A stretch of DNA of 64,000 nt, from the IMG/VR virus record IMGVR_UViG_3300028829_004911; one strand, written 5' to 3'. The position numbers were made by a program, and so were the translations under genes. Positions 17,557 to 33,112 of this stretch are shown in pieces (positions within the stretch are counted from its first letter, which is position 1; each line of letters opens with the position of its first letter). The notes under the pieces are model-generated. The model did not search any database. It had not been told where the DNA came from and saw only the letters and a list, made by a program, of their open reading frames with translations. The DNA is from a virus.

Positions 17557-18206
17557 TTAGATTTATTGGCGACATTCACGGCAAGCTGGATGAATACGAG
17601 ACATTTCTTGATGCGGATGAAACCGTGCAGATTGGTGACTTCGGATTCGGTTGGTTCAACGATTCCCGACTGAACAAGATCGAAGGGTGGCACAGCAATA
17701 AACTGCTTGGCGATCACAAGTTCATTCGGGGCAATCACGATGATCCCGAACAGTGTATGAACGCTACAGGATGGATCAAGGACGGCACTTTCGACGCAGA
17801 GCGCAGCATCATGTATGTTGGCGGAGCATGGTCGATTGACTGGAAAATGCGCACGCCTGGCGTATCTTGGTGGCCTGACGAAGAACTTTCAGGGCGTGAG
17901 TTTATGGATATACACAATCAGTACGTAAAAAACAAACCGCGTATCATGGTAACACACGACTGCCCTGATGACGCAGCGCTGGCGATGTTTACATTCCCTA
18001 ATTACTTTGGAGATTTTCGCAGCACACGCACTGGTGGAGCTTTGCGTGACATGTTTTATGTCCACAAGCCGGACCTGTGGATATTCGGACACTGGCACAC
18101 ACCGCGCGACGTCACGCTGGATGGAACACGTTTCCTATGTCTAGCAGAGCTTGAGGCCGTCGACGTCGATCCAGAAACTTTGGAAGTTTCCTTTGTTGAC
18201 AACTAA
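17553..18206 (+). CDS. Calcineurin-like metallophosphoesterase
   Basis: GDIHG, GDFGFG, GNHDD, HDCP and GHWH motifs. ATGA-coupled ATG at 17553. Confidence 0.85.
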   Translation: MIRFIGDIHGKLDEYETFLDADETVQIGDFGFGWFNDSRLNKIEGWHSNKLLGDHKFIRGNHDDPEQCMNATGWIKDGTFDAERSIMYVGGAWSIDWKMRTPGVSWWPDEELSGREFMDIHNQYVKNKPRIMVTHDCPDDAALAMFTFPNYFGDFRSTRTGGALRDMFYVHKPDLWIFGHWHTPRDVTLDGTRFLCLAELEAVDVDPETLEVSFVDN

Positions 18207-18255
18207 ACTGGTAGCGCCTATACAGGTTATATCGAAACGAATCGGAGGACTTAAT

Positions 18256-18372
18256 ATGAAACATGCTTTTGAACAACTTGCATTGATGACAGCGGTGACG
18301 CTGGGACTGGTGACAGCACCGCACGCGCTGTATTACGACAATCCACGTCTTGTGTTGGGATACTGGAAATGA
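18256..18372 (+). CDS. Hypothetical 38-aa membrane peptide
   Basis: ATG behind GGAGGA. Part of track ORF 18151..18372. Confidence 0.45.
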   Translation: MKHAFEQLALMTAVTLGLVTAPHALYYDNPRLVLGYWK

Positions 18373-18797
18373 GCGCACCAAATGTAATTAAACAGGCATG
18401 GTACTTCCGCGCCGATGCACAAAACAATTTTGGCAAAGCCGTGTATTTGTTCGGCGACAACTGCAAACGCAGAGGCTATGGTGGGCAGGCAAAAGAAATG
18501 CGGGACGAACCAAACGCAATCGGCATCGCCACGAAGAACACACCAACGTCTGGTAGTAATGCTTATTTCAGTGACGATGACTTTATTGAGAACTGTCGTG
18601 TAATTGCTACAGACTTCCGAGCCGCCTTTCAAGCACGAGATGACGGATTGATCGTAATCTTCCCAACCGATGGACTCGGTACAGGGTTGTCCGAGTTACC
18701 TAAACGCGCTCCGCGCACAAACGCATTCCTTGACGAAATCGTGGAAATGCTCTTCTCAGGAGGACAACCCGCATGGAAGCAGATTCTGAACGATTAA
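18369..18797 (+). CDS. Conserved-looking hypothetical protein
   Basis: Track ORF. FGDN..RRGYGGQA..PNAIGIATK and GLGTGLSEL motifs, family not recognised. Confidence 0.75.
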   Translation: MSAPNVIKQAWYFRADAQNNFGKAVYLFGDNCKRRGYGGQAKEMRDEPNAIGIATKNTPTSGSNAYFSDDDFIENCRVIATDFRAAFQARDDGLIVIFPTDGLGTGLSELPKRAPRTNAFLDEIVEMLFSGGQPAWKQILND

Positions 18798-19972
18798 ATC
18801 CTGAATGGCTACAAGGCCCGCTACGCGGGCTATTGGAAACACTCAACAATGATGGCTTTGAAGCCTTCGCTGTTGGTGGATGCGTACGTGATGCTGTCAT
18901 GGGACGCCCATGTAACGACATCGACGTGTCAACCAACGCCACACCTGATCAAGTTTTCAACACGCTTTACGCTGCTAGGTGGAGAATGGTTCCTACAGGG
19001 GTTGAGCACGGCACATGGACAGCGGTCAAAGATCGTCACACATTCGAGGTGACAACTTACCGTCGCGATGTGGCTACAGACGGACGTCGTGCCACCATTG
19101 CATACGCTGATACCATGAACCAAGACGCTGAGCGCAGGGACTTCACCATGAACGCGCTGTACATGGACCTGAACGGGGAAGTATATGACCCAACAAGAAC
19201 AGGCATTGAAGACGCCAAAGCAGGTCGTATCCGATTCGTTGGCGACGCTGCCACACGATGCCGCGAAGACTACCTACGCATATTGCGATTCTACCGATTC
19301 AATGCGACGCACGGCTTCGACAACATGGACAAAGATGGTATGATAGCATGCGAAGCGTACGCTGCCGGACTAAAAGACATATCGCGTGAGCGTGTGCTGA
19401 TGGAGATGCAGAAGCTGTTATCTGCTGTTAATACGCGGTTCGACAATCCGTCAACAAACAACGCCCATCTGTGGCTGGTACTTACCCGCATGCAGTCGCA
19501 TGGGGTGTTGGATGAAGTGTTCCCGCACGGACACACACTGTATAATCTGTTTGATCTACTGAGCGGCGAAAGTGATTTTGGCGGCACGAACACCGACTGG
19601 CGCACGCGTTTATATACTGTATGCGGCAAAAACGTACCGCTACCGTTGGCGAAAAAAGATCGCGTGTTCGTCGAAACGCTGGCGACTTTGTACAGCAATC
19701 CACAGACGCTGTCCCTCGAAGCGTTGGCACAGGTGCACGGCATGCCGCTTGCGCGCGAGCTGGGGTATCTGCGCAAAGACGACTTTACTGGCAGAGCCTT
19801 GCAAGTGGCTTCTGAACAGAAATTTCCTGTGAAAGCAGTAGATTTCATGGATAGGGGGTTTACACAGGGACAAGAACTTGGTAAAGCAATCCGACAGGCC
19901 AGAGAATTTTGGCTGCACAGAAACATGGCGGCAACACGTGACGAGTGCATCGCTGCAGTTATGGGTGACTGA
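18773..19972 (+). CDS. cca: tRNA nucleotidyltransferase (CCA-adding enzyme, class II)
   Basis: GGCVRD..G....DIDV, GVEHGT, TYRRD, RRDFTMNA and ED.LRILRF.RF motifs. Confidence 0.9.
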   Translation: MEADSERLNPEWLQGPLRGLLETLNNDGFEAFAVGGCVRDAVMGRPCNDIDVSTNATPDQVFNTLYAARWRMVPTGVEHGTWTAVKDRHTFEVTTYRRDVATDGRRATIAYADTMNQDAERRDFTMNALYMDLNGEVYDPTRTGIEDAKAGRIRFVGDAATRCREDYLRILRFYRFNATHGFDNMDKDGMIACEAYAAGLKDISRERVLMEMQKLLSAVNTRFDNPSTNNAHLWLVLTRMQSHGVLDEVFPHGHTLYNLFDLLSGESDFGGTNTDWRTRLYTVCGKNVPLPLAKKDRVFVETLATLYSNPQTLSLEALAQVHGMPLARELGYLRKDDFTGRALQVASEQKFPVKAVDFMDRGFTQGQELGKAIRQAREFWLHRNMAATRDECIAAVMGD

Positions 19973-19973
19973 T

Positions 19974-20303
19974 ATGAATGTGCGCAATGTAGAAGAAGTA
20001 GTTGTCCACGGATTCAATTTGACAATAGACCACAACATAGGACACCTTGTGGTATATCACGATGGAAATATCACATGGGACCAGCTACAGGCTGTGAAAG
20101 ATTTTTTGTGGGGGCCGGAAACCGCCGCCATAGAGGTCTACCCACCCGCTTCTAAAGTGGTGCACAGTGTCAATGCTCGCCACCTGTGGCGTTTAGGCAG
20201 CGGCGAATTCTATCCAGATATGCTTGGAGAAGATCGTGGAGCGGACACTCTCCAATCCAGATACGTCCGAACATGGACCGCAGATACGGAGGACAACACA
20301 TAA
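19974..20303 (+). CDS. Hypothetical protein
   Basis: Track ORF 19878..20303 trimmed to the ATG just after the cca stop. Confidence 0.7.
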   Translation: MNVRNVEEVVVHGFNLTIDHNIGHLVVYHDGNITWDQLQAVKDFLWGPETAAIEVYPPASKVVHSVNARHLWRLGSGEFYPDMLGEDRGADTLQSRYVRTWTADTEDNT

Positions 20304-20653
20304 TGTCAATTGAACCTACCTGTGACTTCTGTAATGCCAGCGACAAGTTTCGCTGCAAAACAACAAATGATGCCGCCGGGTGCGAAAGCTACCGTAAGCA
20401 GAACCGCATCCGCGCCTCGATAGGTGGCACAGTCTCAGGACGTGTAAGCCATACTGAACCAAACATGGAAAGCCAACCCAAGGCTGGACAAGAAATTTCA
20501 ATCACGGTGCAGGGCCTACATGGACCAATAACCGTGATGGAATGCGGGACAAAGATTCTCGTACAACGCGACGGAGAATCTATCGCCGTCGATCCCGACG
20601 AGGCTGCGCAAATGATGACAGCACTCAACCAAATCCTAAAACTACGAAAGTGA
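20303..20653 (+). CDS. Hypothetical protein
   Basis: TAATG-coupled ATG at 20303 within track ORF 20186..20653. Confidence 0.7.
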   Translation: MSIEPTCDFCNASDKFRCKTTNDAAGCESYRKQNRIRASIGGTVSGRVSHTEPNMESQPKAGQEISITVQGLHGPITVMECGTKILVQRDGESIAVDPDEAAQMMTALNQILKLRK

Positions 20654-20657
20654 GAAC

Positions 20658-21029
20658 ATGAACACACAACCACAAGTAAGCGTATCCGACATGGTTCTGG
20701 ATTCCGTGAGCGATTCCATCGCGACGGTAAAGAGCATGCTCGGCCTCAAAACAACCACCGAAGTCCTTCCCTTCATGAAGGTCGTCATAGCCTGTCGCTC
20801 GTTAAATGGCGACGCACATGAACAGGTTGTGAAGCCAATCGTCGCTGGCATTCTCGAACAGGTCGAACTGAACCCGGTCGAAAACGCCGCTGACCGTGAG
20901 AAAGCTGTGGAATATGCGGAGCTTATCGCACTGTCCATATCGGACGCGACGCAGCTTATCTATCAGGAGATGCAGCGCCAGGTGCAAGAGCGTGCACAAG
21001 CCTCTGGACAAATCCCACTGGGCAGTTAA
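20658..21029 (+). CDS. Hypothetical protein
   Basis: Track ORF. Confidence 0.75.
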   Translation: MNTQPQVSVSDMVLDSVSDSIATVKSMLGLKTTTEVLPFMKVVIACRSLNGDAHEQVVKPIVAGILEQVELNPVENAADREKAVEYAELIALSISDATQLIYQEMQRQVQERAQASGQIPLGS

Positions 21030-21059
21030 AGAAAAATGATCCTGTCCGCAATTTAGTTG

Positions 21060-21089
21060 TTGACAGGATCACACACCCCTGCGTATACA
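21060..21089 (+). promoter_or_regulatory. Sigma70-like promoter embedded in a 9-bp inverted repeat
   Basis: TTGACA, 18 nt, TATACA. GATCCTGTC (21038-46) and GACAGGATC (21062-70) overlap the -35. Confidence 0.5.
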
Positions 21090-21122
21090 GGGTACACGAA
21101 ACGAGGATTGTTATGAAGCGCT

Positions 21123-21183
21123 CACATGTGTCGGCATACTTCTAATTTTCTTTTTTGAGTAGAGCACAAAGCCTCACGCTTTG
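21123..21183 (+). repeat. Leader repeat copy 1: CACATGTG-N2-GGCATACTTCTA, then hairpin CAAAGC-CTCAC-GCTTTG
   Basis: Read directly. Same two-part unit recurs at 21408-21463. CATACTTCTA alone recurs at 21232-21241. Confidence 0.85.
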
Positions 21184-21252
21184 GCGCTTCTTATCAGTCC
21201 TCGGATTTATGAAAGAGAACGCATTCGTTGACATACTTCTAACAATGGTCAA

Positions 21253-21328
21253 CCTGCGGGTCGTTGGTTCGAATCCAACCTCGGTGCTTGCATCGGGTAG
21301 CTCAGTTGGTAGAGCAGCAGGCTTTAAA
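21253..21328 (+). ncRNA. Circularly permuted tRNA-like element (T arm, then acceptor hairpin capped by CUUG, then D arm, then anticodon-loop-like tail)
   Basis: CCTGC/GCAGG and CTCGGTG/CATCGGG pair. Canonical GTTGG-TTCGAAT-CCAAC and GCTC-AGTTGGTA-GAGC arms. No conventional partner halves nearby. Confidence 0.7.
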
Positions 21329-21407
21329 AGTCGCGAGCTTGTTCTTTTTTATAAATTCGAGATTGACAATATACCACCAATCAAATAGGTGGAACGTAAT
21401 ATCCGAC

Positions 21408-21463
21408 CGCATGTGATGGCATACTTCTATCATGCATTTTAGCAAAGCAAAGCCTCACGCTTT
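21408..21463 (+). repeat. Leader repeat copy 2: CGCATGTG-N2-GGCATACTTCTA, then hairpin AAAGC-CTCAC-GCTTT
   Basis: Direct repeat of 21123-21183. Ends 30 nt before the 21493 start. Confidence 0.85.
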
Positions 21464-21492
21464 AGTCGGACCAAAATAGAAGGAGACGCAAG

Positions 21493-23640
21493 ATGATCGA
21501 CGCCCGCATTATGAGCCTTTTTGGTGCAGTTCTCGTTGAGGACAACGTACCAGCAAACGAAAACGAAGCCACAGTTGTGGACATCGCCGCCTTGGCGCTT
21601 GAATACCGCTACTCGCTGACACCTGAATTCGTTCAGAAGTTGGAAGCGATGACCGGAACCCAGCGTGGCACGATCTTCATACGCATCGGCGAAGCGCTCT
21701 CCACAAACATCGACGGCATCTCGGCGAAGACCTCGCCACTGTACCGACAGTTTCCAAATCACACTATCGTGCCTCTTGAAGCACGTATTTCTGTGTGGAT
21801 GCTGCGTGCACTCGGAGCCGCCCTCGAATTTGACGCACGTGTATATGGTGCTGACCCGGTAACAGGGTTCCAAAGCGACATGCATGGCGCAAACGTGGAC
21901 TTCGATAACGAATACACGCTCGAATTCAAGGCAGAAAAGGGTAACTCTCGCCGCAAGATTCGCTTCTTGAAGCCAATGTCCCATGCGGATTTGGGCGACA
22001 AGGCTGCGGCAATGCTGGGCAACCTAACACCATTCACACCGACCGAACTGGCTTTCGTCAAGTGGTCACTGGATGCTGACATTGTATCGAGTGAAGTTGT
22101 ACGCAACGTGAAGTTCCGCGAAAAGCTGCCCTTGGTAGCCGCAGACCTCTCAGCGGATGTGTATGCCTCTCTCTGTAACTCTGTCACAGATGTTTTACGT
22201 CTCGCTGTACACCTGTCTGGAACGCAAGTCGTTCGCAAGACCGGAACCGGATGGCGCGCACACCTCGTATCCAATGTAACAGTGGAGCCAGACTTGTCTC
22301 TCAACATGAATCCACGCTTCAAGTTGAACAAGAACCAAGGCAAGAAGATGATGAAGATCATCGACGCAATCTTGGAACGCGGCAACACCGATCACGAAAC
22401 AGACTTCATGCGTAACGTTGAATTCTGGAAGCGCTTTGCATCCCACGTTGCAAGCAACCGCCACAACAAGGTCGCGCCGCGTGCCGCCGAAGTCCTGCGC
22501 ACCCTCCGCAAGGGAAACATGCAGTCGTGGGAGCAAAAGTATGCTGCCGCACCTATCGGCTTGAAGATCGATATGGCAATGCAGCGTCCGGGCGAGCTTG
22601 CTCGTCGTATGACTGCGCTTAGCCGTGCAGTTGATGCCGAAGGAAAAGGCCGCAACCGTTTGATCAGCGCCGCGCGTACAGCGTTGCCTGAGGTAAACGC
22701 GATGACATTGCTACAGCTTAACACGCACATGGCGAAAACGGCTAACACCGTGAATCGTTTTCACGCGCTGCCTAACGGCACGTTGATGAAGTCTGAGCGT
22801 GGACGTGAGCCTATCCCGTTTACGGTTAAGGCGGACCTTGAAAAGCACCTTCGCGAACGTCTCGCAGGGACCCTGTCTTTCAGCCGCAAGGGTATTCCAT
22901 CGGATGCCTACGGTATGTTCGTACCTGTCGGTGGTCGCAATGCTTCTGAGGGGGACACGCGTTCCAATCGCGGCGACCGTGTGAAACTGTCCTTCGAAGA
23001 TTCGGATACAATTCGCTTCTTCTTGCATTGGCACGAAAGCTGTGACGTAGACATGTCAGCGGTCGCGTACAATGAAGATTTGGACAAGCTGTTTGATTGT
23101 GCCTATTACAATCTGAATGGGACTGGGATGAAACATTCCGGCGACATTTTGAACGGAAGCAACGGCGCAGCGGAATACATTGACATTGACGTGGCGAAAG
23201 CTAAAGAACGCGGTGTTCGTTATATCCTCATGAACGCGAACGTGTACAGTGGAAACAACTTCGATACGTTTGAATGTAATGTTGGTCTGATGATCCGCGA
23301 CGGGCAAACGGGGCACCACTTCGAGTGCTCAACCGTGGAAAGCAAAATGTCTTTGGACAGCGCCAACCGTAACTGCACGCCAGCCCTGCTGGACCTAGAT
23401 ACGGGTGAAATGATCTATGTTGACCTATCCGGCAACTGGAACCAAGGCGCGAACGTCCACGCCAAGGCTGGAACGCTGAAAGAAACGTTGGATTATTTTG
23501 TCAACTATGGCAAGTACCGCACGTCTTTCGGGGATATAATCGAGTATGCGGGCAGCGACGATCCAGATGCCCCAAAGGCAACGGTAGGTGCCCTACGCGC
23601 CGCACAAGACGAAATCTTGGCTGAAATGGCTGACGCATAA
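21493..23640 (+). CDS. Large protein with a C-terminal TerD-like domain
   Basis: RBS AGAAGGAGA. C-terminal FFLHW..DVDMSAVAY..HSGDILNGSNGAAEYIDIDV..ILMNANVYSG.NF resembles TerD. N-terminal ~500 aa not recognised. Confidence 0.85.
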   Translation: MIDARIMSLFGAVLVEDNVPANENEATVVDIAALALEYRYSLTPEFVQKLEAMTGTQRGTIFIRIGEALSTNIDGISAKTSPLYRQFPNHTIVPLEARISVWMLRALGAALEFDARVYGADPVTGFQSDMHGANVDFDNEYTLEFKAEKGNSRRKIRFLKPMSHADLGDKAAAMLGNLTPFTPTELAFVKWSLDADIVSSEVVRNVKFREKLPLVAADLSADVYASLCNSVTDVLRLAVHLSGTQVVRKTGTGWRAHLVSNVTVEPDLSLNMNPRFKLNKNQGKKMMKIIDAILERGNTDHETDFMRNVEFWKRFASHVASNRHNKVAPRAAEVLRTLRKGNMQSWEQKYAAAPIGLKIDMAMQRPGELARRMTALSRAVDAEGKGRNRLISAARTALPEVNAMTLLQLNTHMAKTANTVNRFHALPNGTLMKSERGREPIPFTVKADLEKHLRERLAGTLSFSRKGIPSDAYGMFVPVGGRNASEGDTRSNRGDRVKLSFEDSDTIRFFLHWHESCDVDMSAVAYNEDLDKLFDCAYYNLNGTGMKHSGDILNGSNGAAEYIDIDVAKAKERGVRYILMNANVYSGNNFDTFECNVGLMIRDGQTGHHFECSTVESKMSLDSANRNCTPALLDLDTGEMIYVDLSGNWNQGANVHAKAGTLKETLDYFVNYGKYRTSFGDIIEYAGSDDPDAPKATVGALRAAQDEILAEMADA

Positions 23641-23645
23641 GAACT

Positions 23646-23680
23646 GACCCCGATTCTGCGGGTCTTTTCATTTTTGGAGG
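23646..23680 (+). terminator. Rho-independent terminator candidate
   Basis: GACCC-N9-GGGTC followed by TTTTCATTTTT. Confidence 0.5.
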
Positions 23681-23709
23681 TTGCGAATCGTTTCATAATT
23701 TCCTATATA
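23681..23709 (+). promoter_or_regulatory. Sigma70-like promoter, TTGCGAATCG variant
   Basis: TTGCGA, 17 nt, TATATA. Confidence 0.6.
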
Positions 23710-23745
23710 CGTTTCAATTGAAATGAAATGATTTGGAGATTTCAC

Positions 23746-24054
23746 ATGATCGAACTTGACGACAGAACTTTTATGCCCACACTGAAAGTATCATCACCGA
23801 TGCTAGTAATGTTTCATGCAAAATGGGCAGGGCCTTGCAATCTGGCGTTACCTAACTTCCAATCAGTGGCACAACGCCGAGGCAATGAAGTTATATTTGC
23901 TACGTTCGATCTTGAAGACAATCCTAAAATTCCTGCGGCGTATAACGTGCGAGCACTTCCTTTATTTCTTTCTTTCTTCGATGGAAAGCCTGTCGGAATG
24001 AAAGCAGGCGCAATCACGGAAGAGTTGATAGAGAGTATGTGCGATGCCGATTAA
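23746..24054 (+). CDS. Thioredoxin-fold protein with a WAGPC motif (first active-site Cys absent)
   Basis: Aligns to E. coli Trx FWAEWCGPC..IRGIPTLLLF as FHAKWAGPC..VRALPLFLSF. ATG behind GGAGA. Confidence 0.85.
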   Translation: MIELDDRTFMPTLKVSSPMLVMFHAKWAGPCNLALPNFQSVAQRRGNEVIFATFDLEDNPKIPAAYNVRALPLFLSFFDGKPVGMKAGAITEELIESMCDAD

Positions 24055-24577
24055 AGAGGACCCCAAGGCTCTTTGGGAAATTCTCGTCCCTTGCCAATAT
24101 AACGACGGCACTCCGGTTACCACCAAACACCACAAAGAGTGGGACCGAAAGGTGATGATGGTGTCCGGCGGACTGACCATCCTAAAACCCGTTACAGGGC
24201 AATGGTCCTTCGGGGGCAAAGTGTATCGGGACCGAAATATTCCTGTACGCATTCTCGGAACGGATGCTGATATTTCCAAGATAATTGGGATGACCATGAT
24301 GCATTACGAACAACTTGCCATCATCGCTTATACTATCAGTGAGCGTGCACAGGTATTCGAAACGCCTCAGGGAATGGTTGACAATTTTTTTTTCGAAAGG
24401 GATCAAATGGCGAGTGAAGATGTAAAGACGGCAGCAGCCGAAGCGTTGACGTATAATCGAATGGGTGGCGTAACTAAAGAAATGATCGAGGACATATGTT
24501 TTGACCATAAAGTCGATATGGGTGATGTTCTTGAAGAAATGGAATGGGGAAGAGACCACTATGACAACGTATCTTAA
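24044..24577 (+). CDS. Hypothetical protein
   Basis: Track ORF, overlaps both neighbours. Confidence 0.75.
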   Translation: MPIKEDPKALWEILVPCQYNDGTPVTTKHHKEWDRKVMMVSGGLTILKPVTGQWSFGGKVYRDRNIPVRILGTDADISKIIGMTMMHYEQLAIIAYTISERAQVFETPQGMVDNFFFERDQMASEDVKTAAAEALTYNRMGGVTKEMIEDICFDHKVDMGDVLEEMEWGRDHYDNVS

Positions 24578-25280
24578 CATTGAATCAATCCCGTTTTGGG
24601 CACCGGAGCAAGTGCGGCTACGCCGCCTAATCACCTCGGCGGTAGCGGATGCGGTAATCCCCGCACTTTCCGAAATCAACAAGGCATGGACGTTCCATGA
24701 AATAGACGGTCCTATCCTAACGCCGCAGATTTGCATGAACAAAGAATACACAGGTGACGACGTGTTCTTCACCCAAGTTTTCAAGTCGGAAAATCAACTG
24801 GCTTTGCGCCCTGAAACCACGCCGTCTTCTTATCAGTATGCGCGTGAGCGCTTCCGTAACAAGAAGAGTTTTCCGGCATGTGTATGGCAAGCCGGAAAAT
24901 CCTTCCGTGTAGAGGCATCAGACGGCGCGCGCGCTGCCACCCTCCGATTCAATGAATTCTACCAACTGGAATTCCAGTGCATCTATGCCAAAGGGACTAT
25001 GGCAGATTATCGCACGCCAGTCACCACCGCGATGCGCACAGCGCTTGACGCCGTGATGTTGGGGACGTCTCGTCTGGTGGAATCCGACCGACTTCCTAGC
25101 TACAGCACGCAGACCATGGACATTGAAATGCCATGGAAAGGTGAGTGGAAAGAGATTGCGAGCATTTCCACCCGAACAGATTTTGGCGACGAATACGAAG
25201 TTCTTGAACTGGCCCTCGGACTTGACCGCGCGGTATTGATTGCGGAACAAAACTACGCCTCACGAAAGGAATCCATGTAA
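24561..25280 (+). CDS. Stand-alone class II aminoacyl-tRNA-synthetase-like catalytic core (GlyRS-like), no anticodon-binding domain
   Basis: LALRPETTPSSY..WQAGKSFRVE...RFNEFYQLEFQ (motif 2-like) and LELALGLDRAVL (motif 3-like). Only 239 aa. Confidence 0.7.
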   Translation: MTTYLNIESIPFWAPEQVRLRRLITSAVADAVIPALSEINKAWTFHEIDGPILTPQICMNKEYTGDDVFFTQVFKSENQLALRPETTPSSYQYARERFRNKKSFPACVWQAGKSFRVEASDGARAATLRFNEFYQLEFQCIYAKGTMADYRTPVTTAMRTALDAVMLGTSRLVESDRLPSYSTQTMDIEMPWKGEWKEIASISTRTDFGDEYEVLELALGLDRAVLIAEQNYASRKESM

Positions 25281-25591
25281 TGCCATTGGTAAAGCGATAC
25301 GACGATGACCCTGATCCAGTGTCTTTCCCGATCACAGGTCACTTGACAACCGCTGACGAAGCTGCGACGTTTTACGAATCATTTCTGAACGATTTGGCCT
25401 GTACCCACGGTGGCACCATCCATCGACTGGCACCAAAGCCAGATCGCAATGCGCATGGCGTTAGATGGACGGTGGGACCAGAGAATTGGGCAAAGGTTTG
25501 CGCCGAAGGTCCTGACATGAAAACTGACGCGTTTACAGTGTTTCACGAGGATGGTGATACGATCTTTTTTCAGGACCGCACCGACCCTTAA
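25280..25591 (+). CDS. Hypothetical protein
   Basis: Track ORF, TAATG-coupled. Confidence 0.75.
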   Translation: MPLVKRYDDDPDPVSFPITGHLTTADEAATFYESFLNDLACTHGGTIHRLAPKPDRNAHGVRWTVGPENWAKVCAEGPDMKTDAFTVFHEDGDTIFFQDRTDP

Positions 25592-25602
25592 TAGGCGAAT
25601 TG

Positions 25603-25653
25603 AATGGAGCGCCCCCATGCTTGTGCGCGTATAAGTGGTCCTCCATTTTTCTT
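25603..25653 (+). terminator. Terminator candidate
   Basis: AATGGAG...CTCCATT with a long GC-rich loop, then TTTTTCTT. Confidence 0.45.
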
Positions 25654-25654
25654 A

Positions 25655-25682
25655 TTGACTACAGGATTTACTACAGTATGTT
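25655..25682 (+). promoter_or_regulatory. Candidate sigma70-like promoter
   Basis: TTGACT, 16 nt, TATGTT. Confidence 0.45.
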
Positions 25683-25720
25683 GGTGGTTATCAGAGAGAA
25701 ATATATAAAGGATTGAACAA

Positions 25721-26141
25721 ATGTCATACACTTGTAAGCACTGGGAAGGGGACGTTGTTAACGGTTTTTGGATTTGTGCGCGGTGCTACGTTAAATTAGG
25801 CGAACGACCCCGAAGATTTTTCAACCCAATGAAGGTTGCCGACTTCTACGCAGACCAGCCCCCAAAACCCCCCCTGTCAAGAAGTAATTGCGGCACCGGT
25901 CGCCGTATATGATGGAATTACGCTGGGTCAGTTCATTAATAGCATGGCGGCGCGAATTGTTGTACGTACTGGAGGCAGTTTCATGCTAGAAGATGCGACC
26001 AATTACGCGATAGACTTACTCCAAAATTACGGGGAGCCGTTTGGCTCTGCTGATATGGCGTGGGACGCTGGCGGTGCATGGGAACTTGTAGACGAAGATA
26101 TGCAACATTGGGATACTGATGAAGGTACCTCGAATCAATAA
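25721..26141 (+). CDS. Hypothetical zinc-ribbon protein interrupted by a frame break at a C7 run (25868-25874)
   Basis: ORF 25721..25912 and start-less ORF 25836..26141 overlap. Only a poorly placed TTG could start the second. Confidence 0.5.
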
Positions 26142-26159
26142 CATGGAGTAACATAATAG

Positions 26160-26405
26160 ATGCCACTTACAAAACCGATGAATGCTGGAATAAAGAACGG
26201 CAGGTTGGTCATTGATATGGCGGAAGCGGATGCGCTTTGGAAAGGACTTACACAAGAGCAACAATATGAGGCAATGTGCATCATGTTCGAGCCAATTATG
26301 GATACAGCGACGAAAATGAAGCGCGCCCTTATCGATGTAGTGGAAGCGGCAGAAAGACAAGGGGCAGGCGTTTGCTATGAGATAGCGCGGGAGGCGTTGG
26401 AATAG
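26160..26405 (+). CDS. Hypothetical protein
   Basis: Track ORF, RBS GGAG. Confidence 0.7.
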   Translation: MPLTKPMNAGIKNGRLVIDMAEADALWKGLTQEQQYEAMCIMFEPIMDTATKMKRALIDVVEAAERQGAGVCYEIAREALE

Positions 26406-26406
26406 T

Positions 26407-26622
26407 ATGGTGAATATACATACCATGATATCTCGATTTAAGCAGGATAGAGCGCGTGTACTGACTTCCATGGGTCTTCGCACCACACACCCATCTAAGG
26501 CGTATGCACAGGGCGTAGAGGACGTGTCAGCACGCATTGCACGACGTGTTCCCAAGGCTTTTCACGAGATTGGGATGGCAGTGGCCCAAACACTCGAAGA
26601 TAATCCATATGAAAAGGATTGA
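26407..26622 (+). CDS. Hypothetical protein
   Basis: Track ORF. Confidence 0.65.
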   Translation: MVNIHTMISRFKQDRARVLTSMGLRTTHPSKAYAQGVEDVSARIARRVPKAFHEIGMAVAQTLEDNPYEKD

Positions 26623-26679
26623 CAGCTAAACAACGATTGTTTACAAAGAATCAACCGCAACAATCATGAGGAGACCACC

Positions 26680-27039
26680 ATGGCTTACCAACAAGAAGTA
26701 AAAGAAACTGCAAAATTTAGTTCATTATTTGTGCTAGTTGCGATTATTTTGGTCGTAGGTATCGGAGGATTTGCTCTTTTTGGCGAGCGCTTTACAAACC
26801 CGTTTCAAGAAGATACGCATACAGCGCTGCAGCACATCCGACAGGTTTCTTGCCAAGAACGGAGCCTGACAATAGATCGAGGGATAGTTGCACACTCCGC
26901 CGCCGAAAGTGCTGCAGAACGTAATGCTGTTTTATTCATCGTACAATTTGAGATTGACAGAACGTCCACGCCTACTACATGTCAACTAGAGGACTGGCAA
27001 ATAAGTTACATGCAGAACGCTGGCGTCTATTTATATTAA
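26680..27039 (+). CDS. N-terminally anchored membrane protein, tandem paralog A
   Basis: RBS GAGGAGA. First ~45 aa about 80 percent identical to the 27053 product. Confidence 0.8.
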   Translation: MAYQQEVKETAKFSSLFVLVAIILVVGIGGFALFGERFTNPFQEDTHTALQHIRQVSCQERSLTIDRGIVAHSAAESAAERNAVLFIVQFEIDRTSTPTTCQLEDWQISYMQNAGVYLY

Positions 27040-27052
27040 AGAGGAGACCATC

Positions 27053-27409
27053 ATGTCTTATAGACAAGAAGTAAAAGAAACTGCAAAATTTAGCTCATTG
27101 TTTGTGTTAGCTGCGATTATTTTGGTTGGAGGTGTCGGAGGATTTGTTATTTTTGGTGAGCGCTTTGTAAAACCGTTCCAAGAAGAAACTCGATACCAAA
27201 CACAGCAAAACAGCCAAGCATACCGCGACGGCCTACGCCAACAGATCAATCAAATGCAGCTTGACTACGCCTCCGCCGATGTCGGAGCACGTAATGCTAT
27301 TCTATCTGTTGCACGCCAGCAGTTTGGGTCACTCGACAGCAGCACGCTAAGCAGCTTACAACAACAACAAAAAGATTTTCTGCGTGAAGCAGGGATCTAC
27401 GTGAATTAA
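27053..27409 (+). CDS. N-terminally anchored membrane protein, tandem paralog B
   Basis: RBS GAGGAGA. Shared M.Y.QEVKETAKFSSLFVL.AIILV.G.GGF..FGERF..PFQE. Confidence 0.8.
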   Translation: MSYRQEVKETAKFSSLFVLAAIILVGGVGGFVIFGERFVKPFQEETRYQTQQNSQAYRDGLRQQINQMQLDYASADVGARNAILSVARQQFGSLDSSTLSSLQQQQKDFLREAGIYVN

Positions 27410-27419
27410 GGAGATATAC

Positions 27420-28001
27420 ATGAAAAATATTTTTAAAGCGCTCGCACTTGTTATTGGCCTGACCAGTATGGGTACTGTCGCGACAGCCTGCGGCGGTTTA
27501 TTTGGCTCCGCCTGTACTGGAAGCGCTTCGGACACAGCAGTTTCCCAGCAATTAGAAGGACTTGTAGCACAAGGCGTACGACAAGTACCAATGCCCGCCA
27601 TCACTAATTTTTTCGAACGACAGATGGTGAAGATGATCTATGAATTGCGCGACAATCCCGAATATCAGACGTACACTTATTTTGTTACGTTGGATGGGAC
27701 ATTTGTATACATTTGTGACAGTGTCGGATACGGTATCAATTCTTCCATTCAATACGCCAGCCCCGTTAAACTGACCCCCGACATCGATTTGGGGGATTCC
27801 CGAGGAGCGATGCCTCTCCCACAAATGGAACCAAACGCTTTGTTCATGCCCGAAGGATTGGCAGCAACTTACGTTATCTGTTCTTTCGATCCGAATACAG
27901 GTCCGGTAGAAGGTGATCTAGGACTTCACGCGGTGTATATGGAACAAGATGCGTTTGTAACGCCCTTTGAAATTCCAACGGCAAACAACCCATACCGATA
28001 A
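27420..28001 (+). CDS. Predicted lipoprotein
   Basis: RBS AAGGAGA. Signal with lipobox-like VATA-C. Confidence 0.75.
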   Translation: MKNIFKALALVIGLTSMGTVATACGGLFGSACTGSASDTAVSQQLEGLVAQGVRQVPMPAITNFFERQMVKMIYELRDNPEYQTYTYFVTLDGTFVYICDSVGYGINSSIQYASPVKLTPDIDLGDSRGAMPLPQMEPNALFMPEGLAATYVICSFDPNTGPVEGDLGLHAVYMEQDAFVTPFEIPTANNPYR

Positions 28002-28067
28002 AAATGGAAGGCGGGGCTTGTCCTCGCCACCCACATCTGAATATACGCCAAAATTTAGGAGGACATT

Positions 28068-28628
28068 ATGGCATCAATACTCACAGTCATTGACGCCCAC
28101 GAAGGGCCAACCGAAATCGACACAACAGTAGGCGGAGTGTTATTCTGCGACGTAGATGGAACTGTTGCTGATTTTACACACCGTCGGCTTGCATCCGAAG
28201 CTGTTCCAAAGGCGTATAAATGGCCCGTGTTTCGGAAGAACATGGATCAGGACCTGCCAATCCAGCCAATCATAGACGCCGTTAAGACGTTGAAAGCTGC
28301 CGGATGGGTCGTGGTTATGATGACAGCCCGCAGTCGCATTGATTTGGAGGTCACCGAAGAGTGGTTAGCAAAATACGGCATAACCTACGATGCAATCTAT
28401 ATCCGCGACGATTGGGTGCGCAATGAAGATGGCTCCATCAAACTGACCCGCAAGGGCAAGCAAATGCCAGACAGCCGTAAAGACGATATCGTGAAAACAG
28501 AGTTATTGGCAAAGGCGCGTGCGGATGGATACGATCCAACACTGGTATTTGATGATCGAAATCAGGTTGTAGATATGTGGCGCTCGCACGGTATCATGTG
28601 TGTTCAAGTTGCAGAAGGAGATTTCTAA
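28068..28628 (+). CDS. HAD-type polynucleotide 3'-phosphatase (Pnkp phosphatase-domain-like)
   Basis: DVDGTVA, MMTARS and VFDDRNQVVDMWRSHGIMCVQVAEGDF, as in the T4 Pnkp C-terminal domain. Confidence 0.8.
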   Translation: MASILTVIDAHEGPTEIDTTVGGVLFCDVDGTVADFTHRRLASEAVPKAYKWPVFRKNMDQDLPIQPIIDAVKTLKAAGWVVVMMTARSRIDLEVTEEWLAKYGITYDAIYIRDDWVRNEDGSIKLTRKGKQMPDSRKDDIVKTELLAKARADGYDPTLVFDDRNQVVDMWRSHGIMCVQVAEGDF

Positions 28629-28900
28629 TGAATTGGTTAACAACAATTTTATGGACGGCAGTGTTGGGAACGGTCGCGGCAGTTTTTTTGTACGAAAAAC
28701 AACCCCATGTTATTACTGAGCGGGAGGTAATTAGAACGGATTATTTTGTTCTACATCTGGAAGAAGACATGCTATATCTGCATGACACATTCACTGGTGA
28801 CTGTTTCAGCTTCCTGCCAACGCTTGGCACAGGGGGACCAGCTATGGCGCATATACCGTGTCGGGACCGCCCCAACATGGTCGAGTTTTCGTCACAATGA
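28628..28900 (+). CDS. Hypothetical membrane-anchored protein
   Basis: TAATG-coupled ATG within track ORF 28577..28900. Confidence 0.65.
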   Translation: MNWLTTILWTAVLGTVAAVFLYEKQPHVITEREVIRTDYFVLHLEEDMLYLHDTFTGDCFSFLPTLGTGGPAMAHIPCRDRPNMVEFSSQ

Positions 28901-29292
28901 TCCTAACGTCTTCGGCGATGTGTATAGCACTCGCCGTGTATTTCGAAGCCCGTGGAGAACCCGTTGAAGGTCAGTACGCGGTCGCCGAAGTAATCCTCAA
29001 TCGCGTGGACAGTCCTCGGTATCCGGATAATGCCTGCGCGGTGACCGCCCAAGACAATGGACCCCGACCGCACGACTGCCAGTTTTCATACATGTGCGAC
29101 GGCTTACCCGAAACTACGCAAGAAACAGAAGCATGGGAACGAGCACAGCAGATCGCTATTGACGTCACGGACGAATCGACTATGTATGTAGAAGGAGCGA
29201 CACACTTTGCCGCAAGCTCGGTGAATAATCGCTGGACCAGACAATTTGAACAAATTGGCACAATTGGAGGCCACACGTTCTACAAAGAATAG
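28897..29292 (+). CDS. SleB-family cell wall hydrolase
   Basis: YFEARGEP..G..AVAEVILNRV.SPRYPD..C.V......QFSY. ATGA-coupled. Confidence 0.85.
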   Translation: MILTSSAMCIALAVYFEARGEPVEGQYAVAEVILNRVDSPRYPDNACAVTAQDNGPRPHDCQFSYMCDGLPETTQETEAWERAQQIAIDVTDESTMYVEGATHFAASSVNNRWTRQFEQIGTIGGHTFYKE

Positions 29293-29301
29293 GAGAACAA
29301 T

Positions 29302-30588
29302 ATGTACCCAGCTATTCAGCATATATCCGAAATACTCCCAGCGGTGGATGGCGATAGCGCCTTCCGCGTGGTCGAAAAGGATTGTGGATATACCTATATC
29401 AACTACAACCATATGGGCAGCGACGTGTTCCCACCAATGCCAACCGATGCGGAGTGGGAACAAGCACAAGGGGATGAATGGGAAAACCACGTTCTCGACC
29501 AAGATTCACTGAGAAGCGCCCTAAGACGCGAATGCCGTGGTATTGCCTTTAATACTGCGTCAGGCTTTATTGCATCCCGCCCTTTCCACAAGTTCTTCAA
29601 CGCTGGCGAACGTGAAGAAGTATCAATGACTGCGCTCCCTTTTAACACCCCACACGTTATCATGGATAAAATGGATGGATCCATGATGCGCCCGTTCTTG
29701 GTCGCAGATAAAGTGCGGTGGGGCACCAAAATGGGTCCTGATACTGACGTTGCAAAAATGGCACAGATTTTCGCAGCACAGTATGATAAGTATGAGAACA
29801 TGGCGCGCGCCTGCATGGAACTAGGTGTTACCCCCATCTTCGAATATGTGTCTAAAGAAAACCGCATCGTCGTATCTTATCCAAAGCGTGACATGGTCTT
29901 GCTGGCTATTCGAGAAACTATAAGTGGGGTATACTGGTCCCGCGAAGACGTTCTCCAAGTCGCAAACGCTTTCGACGTACCTGTTGTAGATGTTTATAAT
30001 GCCGACATCGGCAATAATACAGGATTAGATGCATGGGATACAACTACCAACGAAGGCCTCGCCACAAAGTTTGTCCAAAGTATTCGACAATCTTCGGACA
30101 TTCCCGAAGGCGTCGTCTTGTGGTGGCCTAGTTGGGGCTTTGTAAAGGTAAAGACAGAAGAATACGTTGATTTACACAGAGCGAAAGAGAAGATGGCGAC
30201 GGAGCGAAATCTCATCACCGTTATTCTCTCAGATACAATCGATGATCTTCTTCCCTTACTGGACACCGAAGATCAAGATCGACTAACTGCATTTGTAGAT
30301 TCTTTCTGGGGCGAAATGAATTTGCTTGAAGACAAGATAGAAACCTACTACGAGTGGTCAAAACGGGATTTCGACACAAAACGAGGTTTCGCTGTAAGCG
30401 GTAAATTGGCAGACCAACCTCACATTCGTTCACTCGTGTTCGCATTGTGGGACGGCAAGCTGGAAGACAGCCAGAAAGCAGCAATGAAAGCACTTGAGAG
30501 CGGGCTAGTGTCTGAAACTAAGTGGCGAGAAATAAAAGACAAATGGGAATTCTCATTTGACTGGAACGAAACGGAGGACAATGAATGA
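29302..30588 (+). CDS. ATP-dependent RNA ligase, Rnl1-like
   Basis: Motif I DKMDGS, EGVV, and FVKVKTEEYVDLH resembling T4 Rnl1 HFKIKSDWYVSLH. Confidence 0.8.
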   Translation: MYPAIQHISEILPAVDGDSAFRVVEKDCGYTYINYNHMGSDVFPPMPTDAEWEQAQGDEWENHVLDQDSLRSALRRECRGIAFNTASGFIASRPFHKFFNAGEREEVSMTALPFNTPHVIMDKMDGSMMRPFLVADKVRWGTKMGPDTDVAKMAQIFAAQYDKYENMARACMELGVTPIFEYVSKENRIVVSYPKRDMVLLAIRETISGVYWSREDVLQVANAFDVPVVDVYNADIGNNTGLDAWDTTTNEGLATKFVQSIRQSSDIPEGVVLWWPSWGFVKVKTEEYVDLHRAKEKMATERNLITVILSDTIDDLLPLLDTEDQDRLTAFVDSFWGEMNLLEDKIETYYEWSKRDFDTKRGFAVSGKLADQPHIRSLVFALWDGKLEDSQKAAMKALESGLVSETKWREIKDKWEFSFDWNETEDNE

Positions 30589-31082
30589 ATGATCTTGTAA
30601 CGGCTAATGGAAACATCGCGGGGCCAGTATGTGTTCTGCTTGTGGGTTTACCTGGTTCGGGTAAATCCACATGGCGTACCAGCTTGGGGACCAACTACAC
30701 TTTCTTATCGACAGACGACTATGTCGAGAAAGTAGCGAAAGCATACGGAACCACTTATGACCGTGTTTGGGTGCAACACATCGATGAAGCCACAAAGGCT
30801 ATGGATATCGAATTCCGTGAAGCCATCGAATCGAAAAAATCAATTGCGGTTGATCGCACCAATTTGTCCCTAAAATCACGTAGAAAGTTTTTATCACAAT
30901 TACCTAAGATCTATTCTAAAGTAGCTGTATACTTTGAAATCGATGAAGAACTTAGACAAATGAGAATGAAAGGTCGCGAAGGAAAATTGATACCTGCTGC
31001 TGCGGATGATCGATTACGTTCGGCGTACGTACGCCCAACGAAAGATGAAGGTTTCGACATGATTTTGACAGGTGTCGCATGA
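30585..31082 (+). CDS. Polynucleotide 5'-kinase-like P-loop protein
   Basis: GLPGSGKSTW Walker A, ~165 aa, ATGA-coupled to the RNA ligase. Confidence 0.7.
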   Translation: MNDLVTANGNIAGPVCVLLVGLPGSGKSTWRTSLGTNYTFLSTDDYVEKVAKAYGTTYDRVWVQHIDEATKAMDIEFREAIESKKSIAVDRTNLSLKSRRKFLSQLPKIYSKVAVYFEIDEELRQMRMKGREGKLIPAAADDRLRSAYVRPTKDEGFDMILTGVA

Positions 31083-31612
31083 CAACAATTACTTATCGAG
31101 ACGGCGTCATGGCGGCAGACAGCGGTGAAGCATGGGGTGACGAGATTCGTGCAAACGCCGTCAAAATTTACAATACTGGGAAATATTTAGTAGGACTTTC
31201 TGGGAACTTTGCAGCAGTTGTTTCTTACATCGAGTGGATAACCGATATACAGGATTCACATGATAATCCGTCAACCATGTTTCGAGATAAAGATTTACTA
31301 ATGAATTCTCCCAATAATGGTGTTAACATTCTAATGGTTGACCGAGACGGAGGTATATGGGCAATGACTACGGAAGGCCACGCAACGACACGAGCGTACG
31401 AATATGACTCTATTGGATCTGGCGGCGCATATGCAATGGGCGCGATGCATTGCGGGGCTGGTGCAGAAGAGGCGGTCAAAGCGGCAATCGCATATGACAT
31501 AAATTCAATTGGCCCCGTGTTTCTAACAACTTTCGAGCACGAGACATCCACTTACGGTTCTTTCTTGACAGCACCGAAAGAGTTTGCTAAACAATATACA
31601 GTCGTTGGATAG
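31079..31612 (+). CDS. Ntn-hydrolase, proteasome beta / HslV-like peptidase
   Basis: Starts M-TTITYRDGVMAADS. Later GLSG and IGSGG.YAMGAM motifs. Confidence 0.75.
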   Translation: MTTITYRDGVMAADSGEAWGDEIRANAVKIYNTGKYLVGLSGNFAAVVSYIEWITDIQDSHDNPSTMFRDKDLLMNSPNNGVNILMVDRDGGIWAMTTEGHATTRAYEYDSIGSGGAYAMGAMHCGAGAEEAVKAAIAYDINSIGPVFLTTFEHETSTYGSFLTAPKEFAKQYTVVG

Positions 31613-31645
31613 ACCAACGCACAACATAGCGAGAGGAGTTTTCGC

Positions 31646-33078: not shown

Positions 33079-33112
33079 ATTCTAGCCTATAACGAGAGAA
33101 GGAGATTTTCTC

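Follow-up and report, generated by a model that had tools for sequence, protein, structure and literature searches.

The described proteins closest to the subject of this report, by sequence, by profile and by fold, are the α2-type glycyl-tRNA synthetases (GlyRS; PRK04173; PDB 8t5n, 1ati and 2pme), which are class II aminoacyl-tRNA synthetases of approximately 460–690 amino acids. The protein in question, which we refer to as mini-GlyRS, has 239 amino acids and is encoded on a 64,000-nucleotide stretch of jumbo-phage DNA (IMG/VR record IMGVR_UViG_3300028829_004911), hereafter the window. It has the same motif 1, 2 and 3 residues as α2 GlyRS and the glutamates of the E245/E296/E522 type, whereas its motif-2 loop was two residues longer and a pocket serine was replaced by alanine.

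PylRS of Methanomethylophilus alvus (275 amino acids, without PylSn; PDB 6jp2) is likewise a stand-alone class II domain of similar size, and is a complete synthetase that leaves the anticodon unread. It was among the top structural matches of mini-GlyRS (TM-scores 0.63/0.55, root-mean-square deviation 3.7 Å) but belongs to another subclass, has a large hydrophobic pyrrolysine pocket and grips tRNA with N-terminal helices; the PylS_Cterm model TIGR02367 gave 29.2 bits against a cut-off of 178.15, and the resemblance is one of structural and functional analogy only. GlyQ, the α subunit of α2β2 GlyRS, has approximately 300 amino acids, makes glycyl-adenylate and, as in mini-GlyRS, is a small catalytic protein without a tRNA-binding domain of its own. 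GlyQ however belongs to a lineage of different structure and depends on GlyS to bind tRNA, whereas mini-GlyRS resembled the α2 type and no GlyS-like partner was found nearby. CysRS* and GluQRS/YadB, both class I, are truncated enzymes without an anticodon-binding domain that still act on tRNA, the former by charging a dedicated tRNA (opal tRNA-Cys; PMC5389517) and the latter by modifying a nucleoside. Genetic linkage ties CysRS* to its tRNA, but mini-GlyRS is tied to no one tRNA in this way. AsnA, the amino acid:[carrier protein] ligases, PoxA/EpmA, HisZ and Pol gamma B, derived from AspRS/AsnRS, SerRS, LysRS, HisRS and GlyRS respectively, are class II cores that have lost their tRNA-binding modules and act outside translation. 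These have linked partners (carrier protein, efp/epmB, hisG, polymerase) or degenerate sites (HisZ, Pol gamma B), whereas mini-GlyRS has neither. It is best classed with these stand-alone class II synthetase-core paralogues, set apart by its GlyRS origin, its compactness with a full active site and its tRNA-island context in phages.

The analysis showed mini-GlyRS to be a conserved, GlyRS-derived core, catalytically intact as judged by its residues, with neither an anticodon reader nor a dedicated partner gene. In phages the gene was physically associated with tRNA genes, and several lineages also had it near tRNA-repair genes. Our preferred reading, held at slightly below even confidence, is that it is a functional minimal class II synthetase core from α2-type GlyRS that is anticodon-blind and charges tRNA acceptor ends.

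Relationship to GlyRS and the predicted active site

The open reading frame (ORF) of mini-GlyRS begins with ATG and ends with TAA (25278–25280); this ATG, at 24561, was preferred over an upstream TTG at 24501 because of the family N-terminus MSxALY..GLRFW. An earlier interpretation made from the letters of the window (the sequence-only reading) had quoted four class II segments in the product, and all four were present: LALRPETTPSSY (residues 80–91), AGKSFRVE (residues 111–118), RFNEFYQLEFQ (residues 129–139) and LGLDRAVL (residues 219–226). The Pfam family PF00587 (tRNA-synt_2b) matched with an E-value of 1.2e-9 and 38.9 bits, above its gathering score of 29.3. The protein ended only 16 residues beyond the motif-3 arginine and contained no other Pfam domain, which agreed with the earlier statement that nothing else, and no anticodon-binding domain, is attached. 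That interpretation had also placed the product closest to the glycyl/prolyl/histidyl (IIa) group; NCBIfam, PDB profile and Foldseek comparisons narrowed this to GlyRS.

The best NCBIfam model was GlyRS PRK04173 (E=7.9e-14, 51.3 bits against a cut-off of 312), and TIGR00389, also for GlyRS, gave 27 bits, short of its cut-off of 243.3. HisRS, the PylRS C-terminal domain and HisZ followed, all far under their family cut-offs. Mycobacterium GlyRS was the best match among PDB sequences when the single sequence was used (E=2.4e-5). With the family profile only GlyRS sequences fell below 1e-4, including 8t5n from Mycobacterium tuberculosis (3.2e-13) and N. equitans GlyRS (3.5e-11). Similarity at this level greatly exceeds what chance would give.

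An AlphaFold2 model built on a 29-sequence alignment had a predicted local distance difference test score (pLDDT) of 87.5 and a predicted TM-score of 0.86. The order of its strands and helices was canonical (motif-1 helix and strand, motif-2 hairpin, motif-3 strand-helix) and its sole internal low-confidence stretch was the motif-2 loop, residues 121–128. A Foldseek search of the PDB returned GlyRS of M. tuberculosis and M. thermoresistibile at the top (E approximately 2e-12), followed by PheRS-alpha, the catalytic domains of PylRS and T. thermophilus GlyRS. Of 693 matches at E≤0.001, the first 50 listed were without exception class II synthetases. In BFVD the first match was an uncharacterised 222-amino acid phage member and the next was a giant-virus GlyRS. 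A family member with an insertion, P0149, was also modelled (pLDDT 86.1); its top 23 PDB matches were all GlyRS, and its insert was confidently helical and lay at the topological site of GlyRS insertion 1, with TM-scores that were no better. Alignment showed mini-GlyRS to be colinear with residues 170–308 of M. tuberculosis GlyRS. It lacked three parts of GlyRS, namely the region that separates motif 1 from RPET, an insertion that precedes motif 3, and the anticodon-binding domain.

Across 29 diverse members 50 columns were invariant, and all three motifs were represented among them. In motif 1 W43 was invariant and P51 and P55 were nearly so; the model placed a helix at residues 15–39 followed by strands at 44–47 and 53–55. 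Residues 121–123 of the motif-2 loop, where pLDDT was low, varied by subfamily (DGA versus Q-x-T/S). The pocket was compared in 32 sequences, comprising phage, insertion-bearing, very divergent (E approximately 1e-30) and bacterial chromosomal members. P179, Y181, D187, E198, S201, R205 and D207 were unchanged in all of these classes. In motif 3, E216, A218, D222 and R223 were invariant in 32/32 sequences and G220 was present in 31/32, with Ser in P0170.

The sequence of the human GlyRS catalytic region (residues 241–296 among those verified) was 100% identical to PDB chains 2pme/4kr3, and the literature numbering of human GlyRS therefore applies. In the alignment to the family hidden Markov model, E85, R116, E118 and E137 corresponded to human E245, R277, E279 and E296. 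The spacing of E216-L-A218-L-G220-L-D-R223 equalled that of human E522-P-S524-F-G526-L-G-R529 and was located at the motif-3 strand-helix junction of the model; as a phmmer search of the 44-amino acid C-terminal fragment against the PDB found no match, this correspondence rests on spacing and topology and not on a scored alignment. Structural work on GlyRS has established that E245, E296 and E522 of the human enzyme hold the ammonium group of glycine and that R277 and R529 bind ATP. The equivalents of the ATP-binding residues of GlyRS (R116 and E118 in motif 2, R223 in motif 3) and the three glycine-pocket glutamates (E85, E137, E216) were invariant in all subfamilies sampled, the sole pocket change relative to GlyRS being from human S524 to an invariant Ala218. 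Because of the three pocket glutamates, the substrate is probably glycine. The invariance is that expected from selection on catalysis and is the opposite of what is seen in the non-catalytic Pol gamma B and HisZ. The motif and pocket residues thus argue for an active adenylate-forming enzyme of the glycine type and against a scaffold resembling either of those two proteins.

The sequence-only reading had considered a polymerase-accessory role conceivable. A non-catalytic accessory could be a processivity or assembly factor of a family A polymerase, as Pol gamma B is, or an allosteric subunit resembling HisZ. Pol gamma B has a GlyRS-like fold, and the phage encodes a family A polymerase as well as a probably non-redox thioredoxin-fold protein two genes upstream of mini-GlyRS. 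Such a role is nevertheless scarcely credible, as the catalytic and pocket residues were invariant over very deep divergence and the C-terminal domain of the anticodon-binding type, which Pol gamma B uses, was missing. The polymerase lies 23 kb away in another module, the thioredoxin-like neighbour did not co-occur elsewhere, and homologues were found as single genes on bacterial chromosomes. POLG2 structures were not among the top 50 listed Foldseek matches of the window protein or P0149, the HisZ model TIGR00443 gave 25.4 bits against a cut-off of 271.65 and no hisG was present in any neighbourhood examined. Both the Pol-gamma-B-like subunit and the HisZ-like regulator were rejected. The same was true of a decayed fragment of a full-length synthetase, which would account for a length of approximately half that of GlyRS. 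The class II fold was found and confidently predicted to be compact, the motifs were intact and invariant, a length of 210–260 amino acids was kept over hundreds of clusters, and the gene is translationally coupled in an operon, leaving a pseudogene a practically negligible possibility.

Very improbable, in our judgement, is a synthase of Ap4A-type dinucleotide polyphosphates or another nucleotide signal during infection, as in the side reaction of LysU and human GlyRS. GlyRS is documented to make Ap4A and PDB 2zt5 (human GlyRS with Ap4A) was among the structural matches. NUDIX hydrolases were frequent near homologues, but jumbo phages commonly carry such genes in any case. The human enzyme needs no amino acid to make Ap4A, and the invariance of the three glycine-binding glutamates, which indicates that amino-acid binding is under selection, counts against this activity as the function.

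Extent and naming of the family

A search of 5.8 billion proteins returned 514 mini-GlyRS clusters at E≤1e-3; the 120 listed of these were all 225–253 amino acids in length and many were located on contigs of 200–600 kb. An exhaustive HMMER search of 1.84 billion representatives gave 116 clusters (50% identity) at E≤1e-30, in which complete members had 210–260 amino acids and none had an extra domain. The anticodon-binding domain was absent from all of the approximately 150 best cluster representatives. A small subfamily of 306–352 amino acids had an insert of approximately 80 amino acids between motif 1 and the RPETT strand, for which no Pfam match was found. The family proteins were acidic, with isoelectric points of 5.1–6.4.

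Homologues with 33–44% identity were encoded by isolated jumbo phages, namely Caulobacter phages CcrBL9 and CcrSC and other Bertelyvirus members, the Brevundimonas vB_BpoS phages, Sinorhizobium phage Phosso and Xanthomonas phage XbC2. One was also encoded by each of two huge phages from metagenomes. A scan of GTDB genomes yielded 41 loci, including cultured strains of Devosia, Phenylobacterium, Pseudaminobacter and Caulobacter, and bacterial homologues occurred on contigs of up to 5.8 Mb. The homologues at L031–L033, L044–L047 and L060, from these four genera, were chromosomal and single-copy (accessions include WP_055999404.1, WP_284339267.1, WP_242564549.1 and WP_423311632.1). The Phenylobacterium and Devosia copies were found among unrelated metabolic and transport genes, with synteny within Phenylobacterium (an acyl-CoA dehydrogenase gene upstream), and the copy of Devosia sp. 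Root413D1 had a host-like G+C content at third codon positions (0.85). These chromosomal copies suggest a stable cellular role besides the phage one.

Annotations of the phage homologues were inconsistent (hypothetical protein, aminoacyl-tRNA synthetase, serine-tRNA synthetase, RNA synthetase class II), and bacterial copies were named 'aminoacyl--tRNA ligase-related protein' in RefSeq and 'glycyl-tRNA synthetase' by JGI. The specific synthetase names in public records overstate what is known of the family. Megablast of the mini-GlyRS region against 50,697 phage records found no near relative, PHROGs had no family for the protein and PADLOC had none for the protein or its neighbours. No description of the family was found in the literature (full text, with reviews on jumbo-phage comparative genomics, aminoacyl-tRNA synthetase paralogues and huge phages).

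One family member (L023) was present on a contig of 1,136,180 bp (GCA_043956695.1) among phage-like genes (T4 gp13/gp15-type, baseplate V). This contig also encoded Tpt1/KptA, Cpn10, a PP-loop ATPase and a tRNA-like gene of 96 nt whose anticodon was called as four bases (tccg). It represents either a phage of extreme size or an assembly that is chimeric or integrated. BFVD additionally contained smaller viral proteins resembling class II cores, A0A2I7SAH4 (185 amino acids) and A0A292GIB7 (196 amino acids), with 14–15% identity and Foldseek E-values of approximately 1e-7. Positions 66793–67200 of the Staphylococcus Kayvirus-like phage OR844995.1 showed 30% identity to mini-GlyRS residues 76–208. 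The smaller proteins and this match hint that more mini class II families may exist in phages.

Gene neighbourhoods and the putative acceptor

Partner genes were sought by BLAST clustering of the ORFs of 23 phage loci and 41 genome loci, and by phmmer comparison of the neighbours in the window with the ORFs of 67 loci. No partner gene of mini-GlyRS was universal in those phage and genome loci, which points to a ubiquitous acceptor. After a metagenome scan there were 98 non-redundant loci, and proximity to tRNA genes was assessed in the 28 phage-like loci that extended 7 kb or more to both sides; 168 positions 3.5–6.5 kb away in the same loci served as a control, which we regard as conservative. 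A tRNA gene lay within 1 kb of mini-GlyRS in 10/28 loci (36%) compared to 20/168 control positions (12%; Fisher p=0.003, odds ratio 4.1). A canonical bacterial-type tRNA-Gly gene flanked mini-GlyRS at a distance of at most 100 nt in L076, L137 and L066, which are independent lineages. Genes for T4 Rnl1-type RNA ligase were present within 8 kb of the homologue in five lineages (the window, L001, L003, L009 and L013), and L009 kept the order mini-GlyRS, HAD phosphatase, Rnl1, kinase. Pth was encoded near the homologue in four loci, and genes for Tpt1 and TilS-like proteins were sporadic. In phage Phosso, CysRS, an RNA ligase and Pth were all encoded near mini-GlyRS.

In six Phosso-like loci (L003, which is Sinorhizobium phage Phosso, 6594–6669; L103; L105; L107; L116; L130) a tRNA(CUA) gene was located 0.3–0.9 kb upstream of mini-GlyRS. 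As this clade is broadly syntenic, the adjacency amounts to approximately one event, and tRNA(CUA) was rejected as a specific partner in favour of inherited synteny. The conserved block consisted of CysRS, a 199-amino acid ORF, tRNA(CUA), a small ORF, mini-GlyRS and, further on, Pth. All of these amber-suppressor-type tRNAs had the discriminator G73. In L018, a distant member, the tRNA(CUA) gene was 1.7 kb away. A separate 83-kb phage contig (L006) encoded an alphaproteobacterial-type permuted transfer-messenger RNA (RF01849, 89 bits; 4516–4938) 3 kb upstream of its mini-GlyRS gene.

If mini-GlyRS is a charging enzyme, it would dimerise through motif 1 and make an aminoacyl-adenylate from ATP and glycine, or from ATP and some other very small amino acid. 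The amino acid would then pass to the 3′-end of a tRNA recognised by its acceptor end alone, through the motif-2 loop, with the anticodon unread. In phages the enzyme would be part of an auxiliary toolkit for tRNA supply and repair, together with tRNA genes, the CCA-adding enzyme, PNKP parts, Rnl1 and Pth, and this toolkit would keep translation running when the host attacks or withholds tRNA machinery. The sequence-only reading had stated that the protein cannot be a normal tRNA synthetase. This was too strong, since complete synthetases of comparable size that ignore the anticodon exist; by analogy, the 275-amino acid M. alvus PylRS and CysRS* (PMC5389517) show that anticodon-blind synthetases, or ones lacking the anticodon-binding domain, are viable. 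The RNA-directed role that it had also thought conceivable fitted the tRNA association and the RNA-repair genes, whereas its suggested connection to the RNA at 21253 of the window proved weak.

Several points weigh against tRNA charging. GlyRS normally needs the anticodon bases C35/C36 and insertion domains that hold the acceptor stem, and mini-GlyRS has neither those insertion domains nor an anticodon reader. The acidic proteins had no obvious added RNA-binding element. The proposed binding of tRNA by mini-GlyRS is argued from gene neighbourhood and analogy. No tRNA gene was found in the 64-kb window. The tRNAs adjacent to homologues had no common identity and no common acceptor-stem identity, and tRNA-Gly as the immediate neighbour in 3/7 tRNA-adjacent loci was not significant relative to the local tRNA background (p approximately 0.10). 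Near the bacterial chromosomal copies tRNA genes were found in 0/10 high-GC loci and RNA-repair neighbours were absent; such bare neighbourhoods would be just as compatible with a housekeeping ligase that does not depend on tRNA. The invariant Ser-to-Ala change in the pocket may also leave room for a very small amino acid other than glycine.

Such a ligase is the main rival, and we rate it as a real but doubtful contender. Modelled on AsnA, the amino acid:[carrier protein] ligases and PoxA/EpmA, which are class II cores without tRNA-binding parts, it would transfer glycine or another small aminoacyl group from the adenylate to a small molecule, a phosphopantetheinyl carrier, a protein side chain or ammonia. 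The lack of an anticodon-binding domain or GlyRS insertion in every member, the acidity of the proteins with no RNA-binding appendage, and the occurrence of bacterial homologues as isolated single genes amid metabolic genes, with no tRNA context, are all in its favour. To our knowledge, stand-alone class II cores of this size are all tRNA-independent, with the exception of PylRS. The phage copies, however, were embedded in tRNA arrays and RNA-repair islands, and the loop of motif 2, with which class II enzymes contact the acceptor end, was retained, longer than that of GlyRS and conserved within subfamilies. The phage and bacterial loci examined showed no carrier protein, EF-P/EpmB-like gene or biosynthetic cluster next to the gene, and Rfam found no riboswitch or T-box upstream of the bacterial copies. 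Similarity to SerRS-type amino acid:[carrier protein] ligases, AsnA and LysRS-type PoxA was weak or absent. The amino acid:[carrier protein] ligase itself was rejected, as the SerRS model gave just E=7e-4 and the annotated phage and bacterial neighbourhoods contained no carrier protein and no recurrent partner cluster. PoxA/EpmA and AsnA were likewise set aside, the window protein having no PF00152 or AsnA match.

A third possibility is an RNA-modifying paralogue resembling GluQRS/YadB, which would place glycine onto a nucleoside, perhaps a modified one, within a tRNA or an RNA that resembles tRNA; the Y-RNA-like element upstream in the window would be an example of the latter. GluQRS, a truncated synthetase without an anticodon-binding domain that modifies tRNA, is a precedent (listed in PMC9437257). 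The neighbourhood of tRNA and tRNA-processing genes, with TilS-like PP-loop enzymes near the homologue in L023 and L026, is compatible with it. The element in the window is a tRNA-like module of permuted order (T-arm, closed hairpin, D-arm) that ended at 21319, 3.2 kb upstream of mini-GlyRS as the sequence-only reading had placed it. It matched the Rfam family YrlA (bacterial Y RNA) with 40.3 bits (E=2e-7), under the gathering score of 69, and ARAGORN found no tRNA there. A second sub-threshold, full-length YrlA match was present in L029 (2362–2469). As a comparable element was found near just this one other homologue, and thus in 2 distinct loci, the link of mini-GlyRS to the Y-RNA-like element is weak. 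Queuosine or other modification pathways were not consistently linked and we know of no class II precedent; an RNA-modifying function is improbable.

A further element, in L015, was rejected as Y-RNA-like and is more likely a tRNA with a long insert: the tRNA-like gene had a 79-nt insert in the anticodon region and an extra T-arm before it. In the same locus, skipping-rope RNA was matched 0.7 kb upstream of the homologue with 41.2 bits, which exceeds the gathering score. The coordinates of the RNA elements in L015 were 10096–10233 and 7166–7283.

The preferred reading, of an anticodon-blind core that charges acceptor ends, can be extended. In this bolder form, which we consider rather unlikely, the family would be the smallest natural class II aminoacyl-tRNA synthetase, a glycylating enzyme of approximately 235 amino acids that ignores the anticodon and with which phages keep tRNAs charged whatever the anticodon state. 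Its substrates could be variant tRNAs of the phage, tRNAs that have been nicked or repaired, or an amber-suppressor tRNA(CUA) such as that of the Phosso-like clade. It would then be an unrecognised part of the phage toolkit for tRNA repair and counter-defence, with a domesticated copy in some Alphaproteobacteria. Mini-GlyRS may be among the smallest natural enzymes of its class. If active, it would be a natural near-minimal class II core, with approximately half the mass of GlyRS and neither insertions nor an anticodon reader, and would bear on how small a functional synthetase can be, a question so far approached mostly with engineered 'urzymes'. It could also be a new player in phage-host tRNA conflict, beside phage tRNAs, RNA ligases, PNKP, CCA-adding enzymes and Pth, and a compact, anticodon-independent activator of glycine would, if confirmed, have practical appeal for engineering of the genetic code. 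Experiments on the family are feasible in cultured Devosia, Phenylobacterium and Caulobacter and in the isolated jumbo phages of Caulobacter, Brevundimonas, Sinorhizobium and Xanthomonas.

Repair island, coupled genes and other features of the window

The features of the mini-GlyRS gene and its surroundings are given in Table 1.

Table 1. Position of mini-GlyRS, its motifs and surrounding features in the window
Feature	Position	Strand	Evidence or remark
mini-GlyRS gene	24561..25280 (stop included)	+	239-amino acid stand-alone class II aminoacyl-tRNA synthetase catalytic core; ORF and PF00587
Motif 1 (WTFHEIDGPILTPQ, residues 43–56)	24687..24728	+	Class II motif-1 proline P51; presumed dimer interface
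ALRPETTPSSY strand (residues 81–91)	24801..24833	+	R83, E85, T86 and T87 invariant; E85 aligns with human GlyRS E245
Motif 2 (residues 110–139): GKSFRVE, 10-residue loop, LRFNEFYQLEFQ	24888..24977	+	Invariant columns and profile alignment
SDRLPSYS..T.DIE....W.E.ASIS.RTDF block (residues 175–208)	25083..25184	+	Colinear with GlyRS 'HYS..T.DIE...W.E..G.A.RTDFD' active-site strands (Mycobacterium GlyRS alignments)
Motif 3 (YEVLELALGLDRAVL, residues 212–226)	25194..25238	+	AlphaFold2 strand 212–220 then helix 221–238
CCA-adding-type tRNA nucleotidyltransferase	18773..19972	+	PF01743; NCBIfam NF009814 E=3e-55, below its cut-off
tRNA-like (Y-RNA-like) module	21255..21319	+	Inside intergenic region 21040–21492
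715-amino acid protein	21493..23640	+	phrog_33734; NCBIfam NF041916, 183 bits, below cut-off
Thioredoxin-fold gene	23728..24054	+	PF00085 E=7.8e-15; WAGPC instead of WCGPC; overlaps start of next gene
177-amino acid gene	24044..24577	+	Between thioredoxin-like gene and mini-GlyRS; overlaps mini-GlyRS start by 17 nt
103-amino acid gene	25280..25591	+	Its ATG overlaps the mini-GlyRS stop (TAATG)
Stand-alone PNKP-type HAD phosphatase	28068..28628	+	PF25109 E=2.7e-28; recurs near homologues in L009 and L015
T4 Rnl1-type RNA ligase	29302..30588	+	PF09511 E=1.9e-26
AAA_33 kinase like Pnkp polynucleotide-kinase domain	30585..31082	+	PF13671; weak TIGR04075 bacter_Pnkp match; recurs in L009 in the same order
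NadM-Nudix	31646–32770		398 bits, meets 397-bit cut-off
NAMPT	33113–34510
Rnl2-like ligase	41582–42571
Family A DNA polymerase	48065–50398		Replication module with helicases, ThyX and RNR

The surroundings of mini-GlyRS can be read, from gene content, as a tRNA-maintenance and counter-defence island. A dense set of RNA-repair and NAD-salvage genes spanned 17466–34510, with the Rnl2-like ligase lying apart, and the HAD phosphatase and AAA_33 kinase together represent a split PNKP. The island also contained rIIA-like and rIIB-like genes and a metallophosphatase. Exactly these components make up the jumbo-phage RNA-repair repertoire described by Iyer et al. 2021, in which no synthetase-like core is mentioned.

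Immediately upstream of mini-GlyRS, the order of genes was as the sequence-only reading had described, with the WAGPC thioredoxin-fold gene separated from it by a single gene. Replacement of the first active-site cysteine makes the thioredoxin-like protein monothiol and probably non-redox. The 177-amino acid product had no Pfam or NCBIfam match and just weak similarity to phrog_3543, and family searches with the 103-amino acid product gave no match. The 17-nt overlap and the TAATG junction place mini-GlyRS in a translationally coupled block that begins with the thioredoxin-like gene, and coupling of the 177-amino acid gene with mini-GlyRS is likely from this arrangement. These three neighbours did not recur beside homologues elsewhere and were confined to close relatives of the window. 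Scans for sigma-70 promoters and terminators gave results no better than shuffled sequence.

Within 330 nt of the + strand (21135–21463), CATACTTCTA occurred in three exact copies (21135, 21232 and 21420) and AAGCCTCACGCTTT in two (21169 and 21450). These repeats bracketed the Y-RNA-like element, had no other exact copy in the window and could be local promoter or leader repeats. The 715-amino acid protein encoded downstream of them had no Pfam match; the NCBIfam model that it matched is that of the MXAN_6230/SCO0854 RING-domain family, and its C-terminal part appeared TerD-like by eye (HSGDILNGSNGAAEYIDIDV). It was rejected as a Ro/TROVE protein, being a relative of the SCO0854/MXAN_6230 family, and no Ro/TROVE gene was present next to the Y-RNA-like element of the window. 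Downstream of mini-GlyRS, two small paralogous genes of 119 and 118 amino acids were located in tandem on the + strand (26680–27039 and 27053–27409). Their N-termini were nearly identical (M[AS]Y[QR]QEVKETAKFSSLFVL.AIILV) and each had one transmembrane segment as judged by eye.

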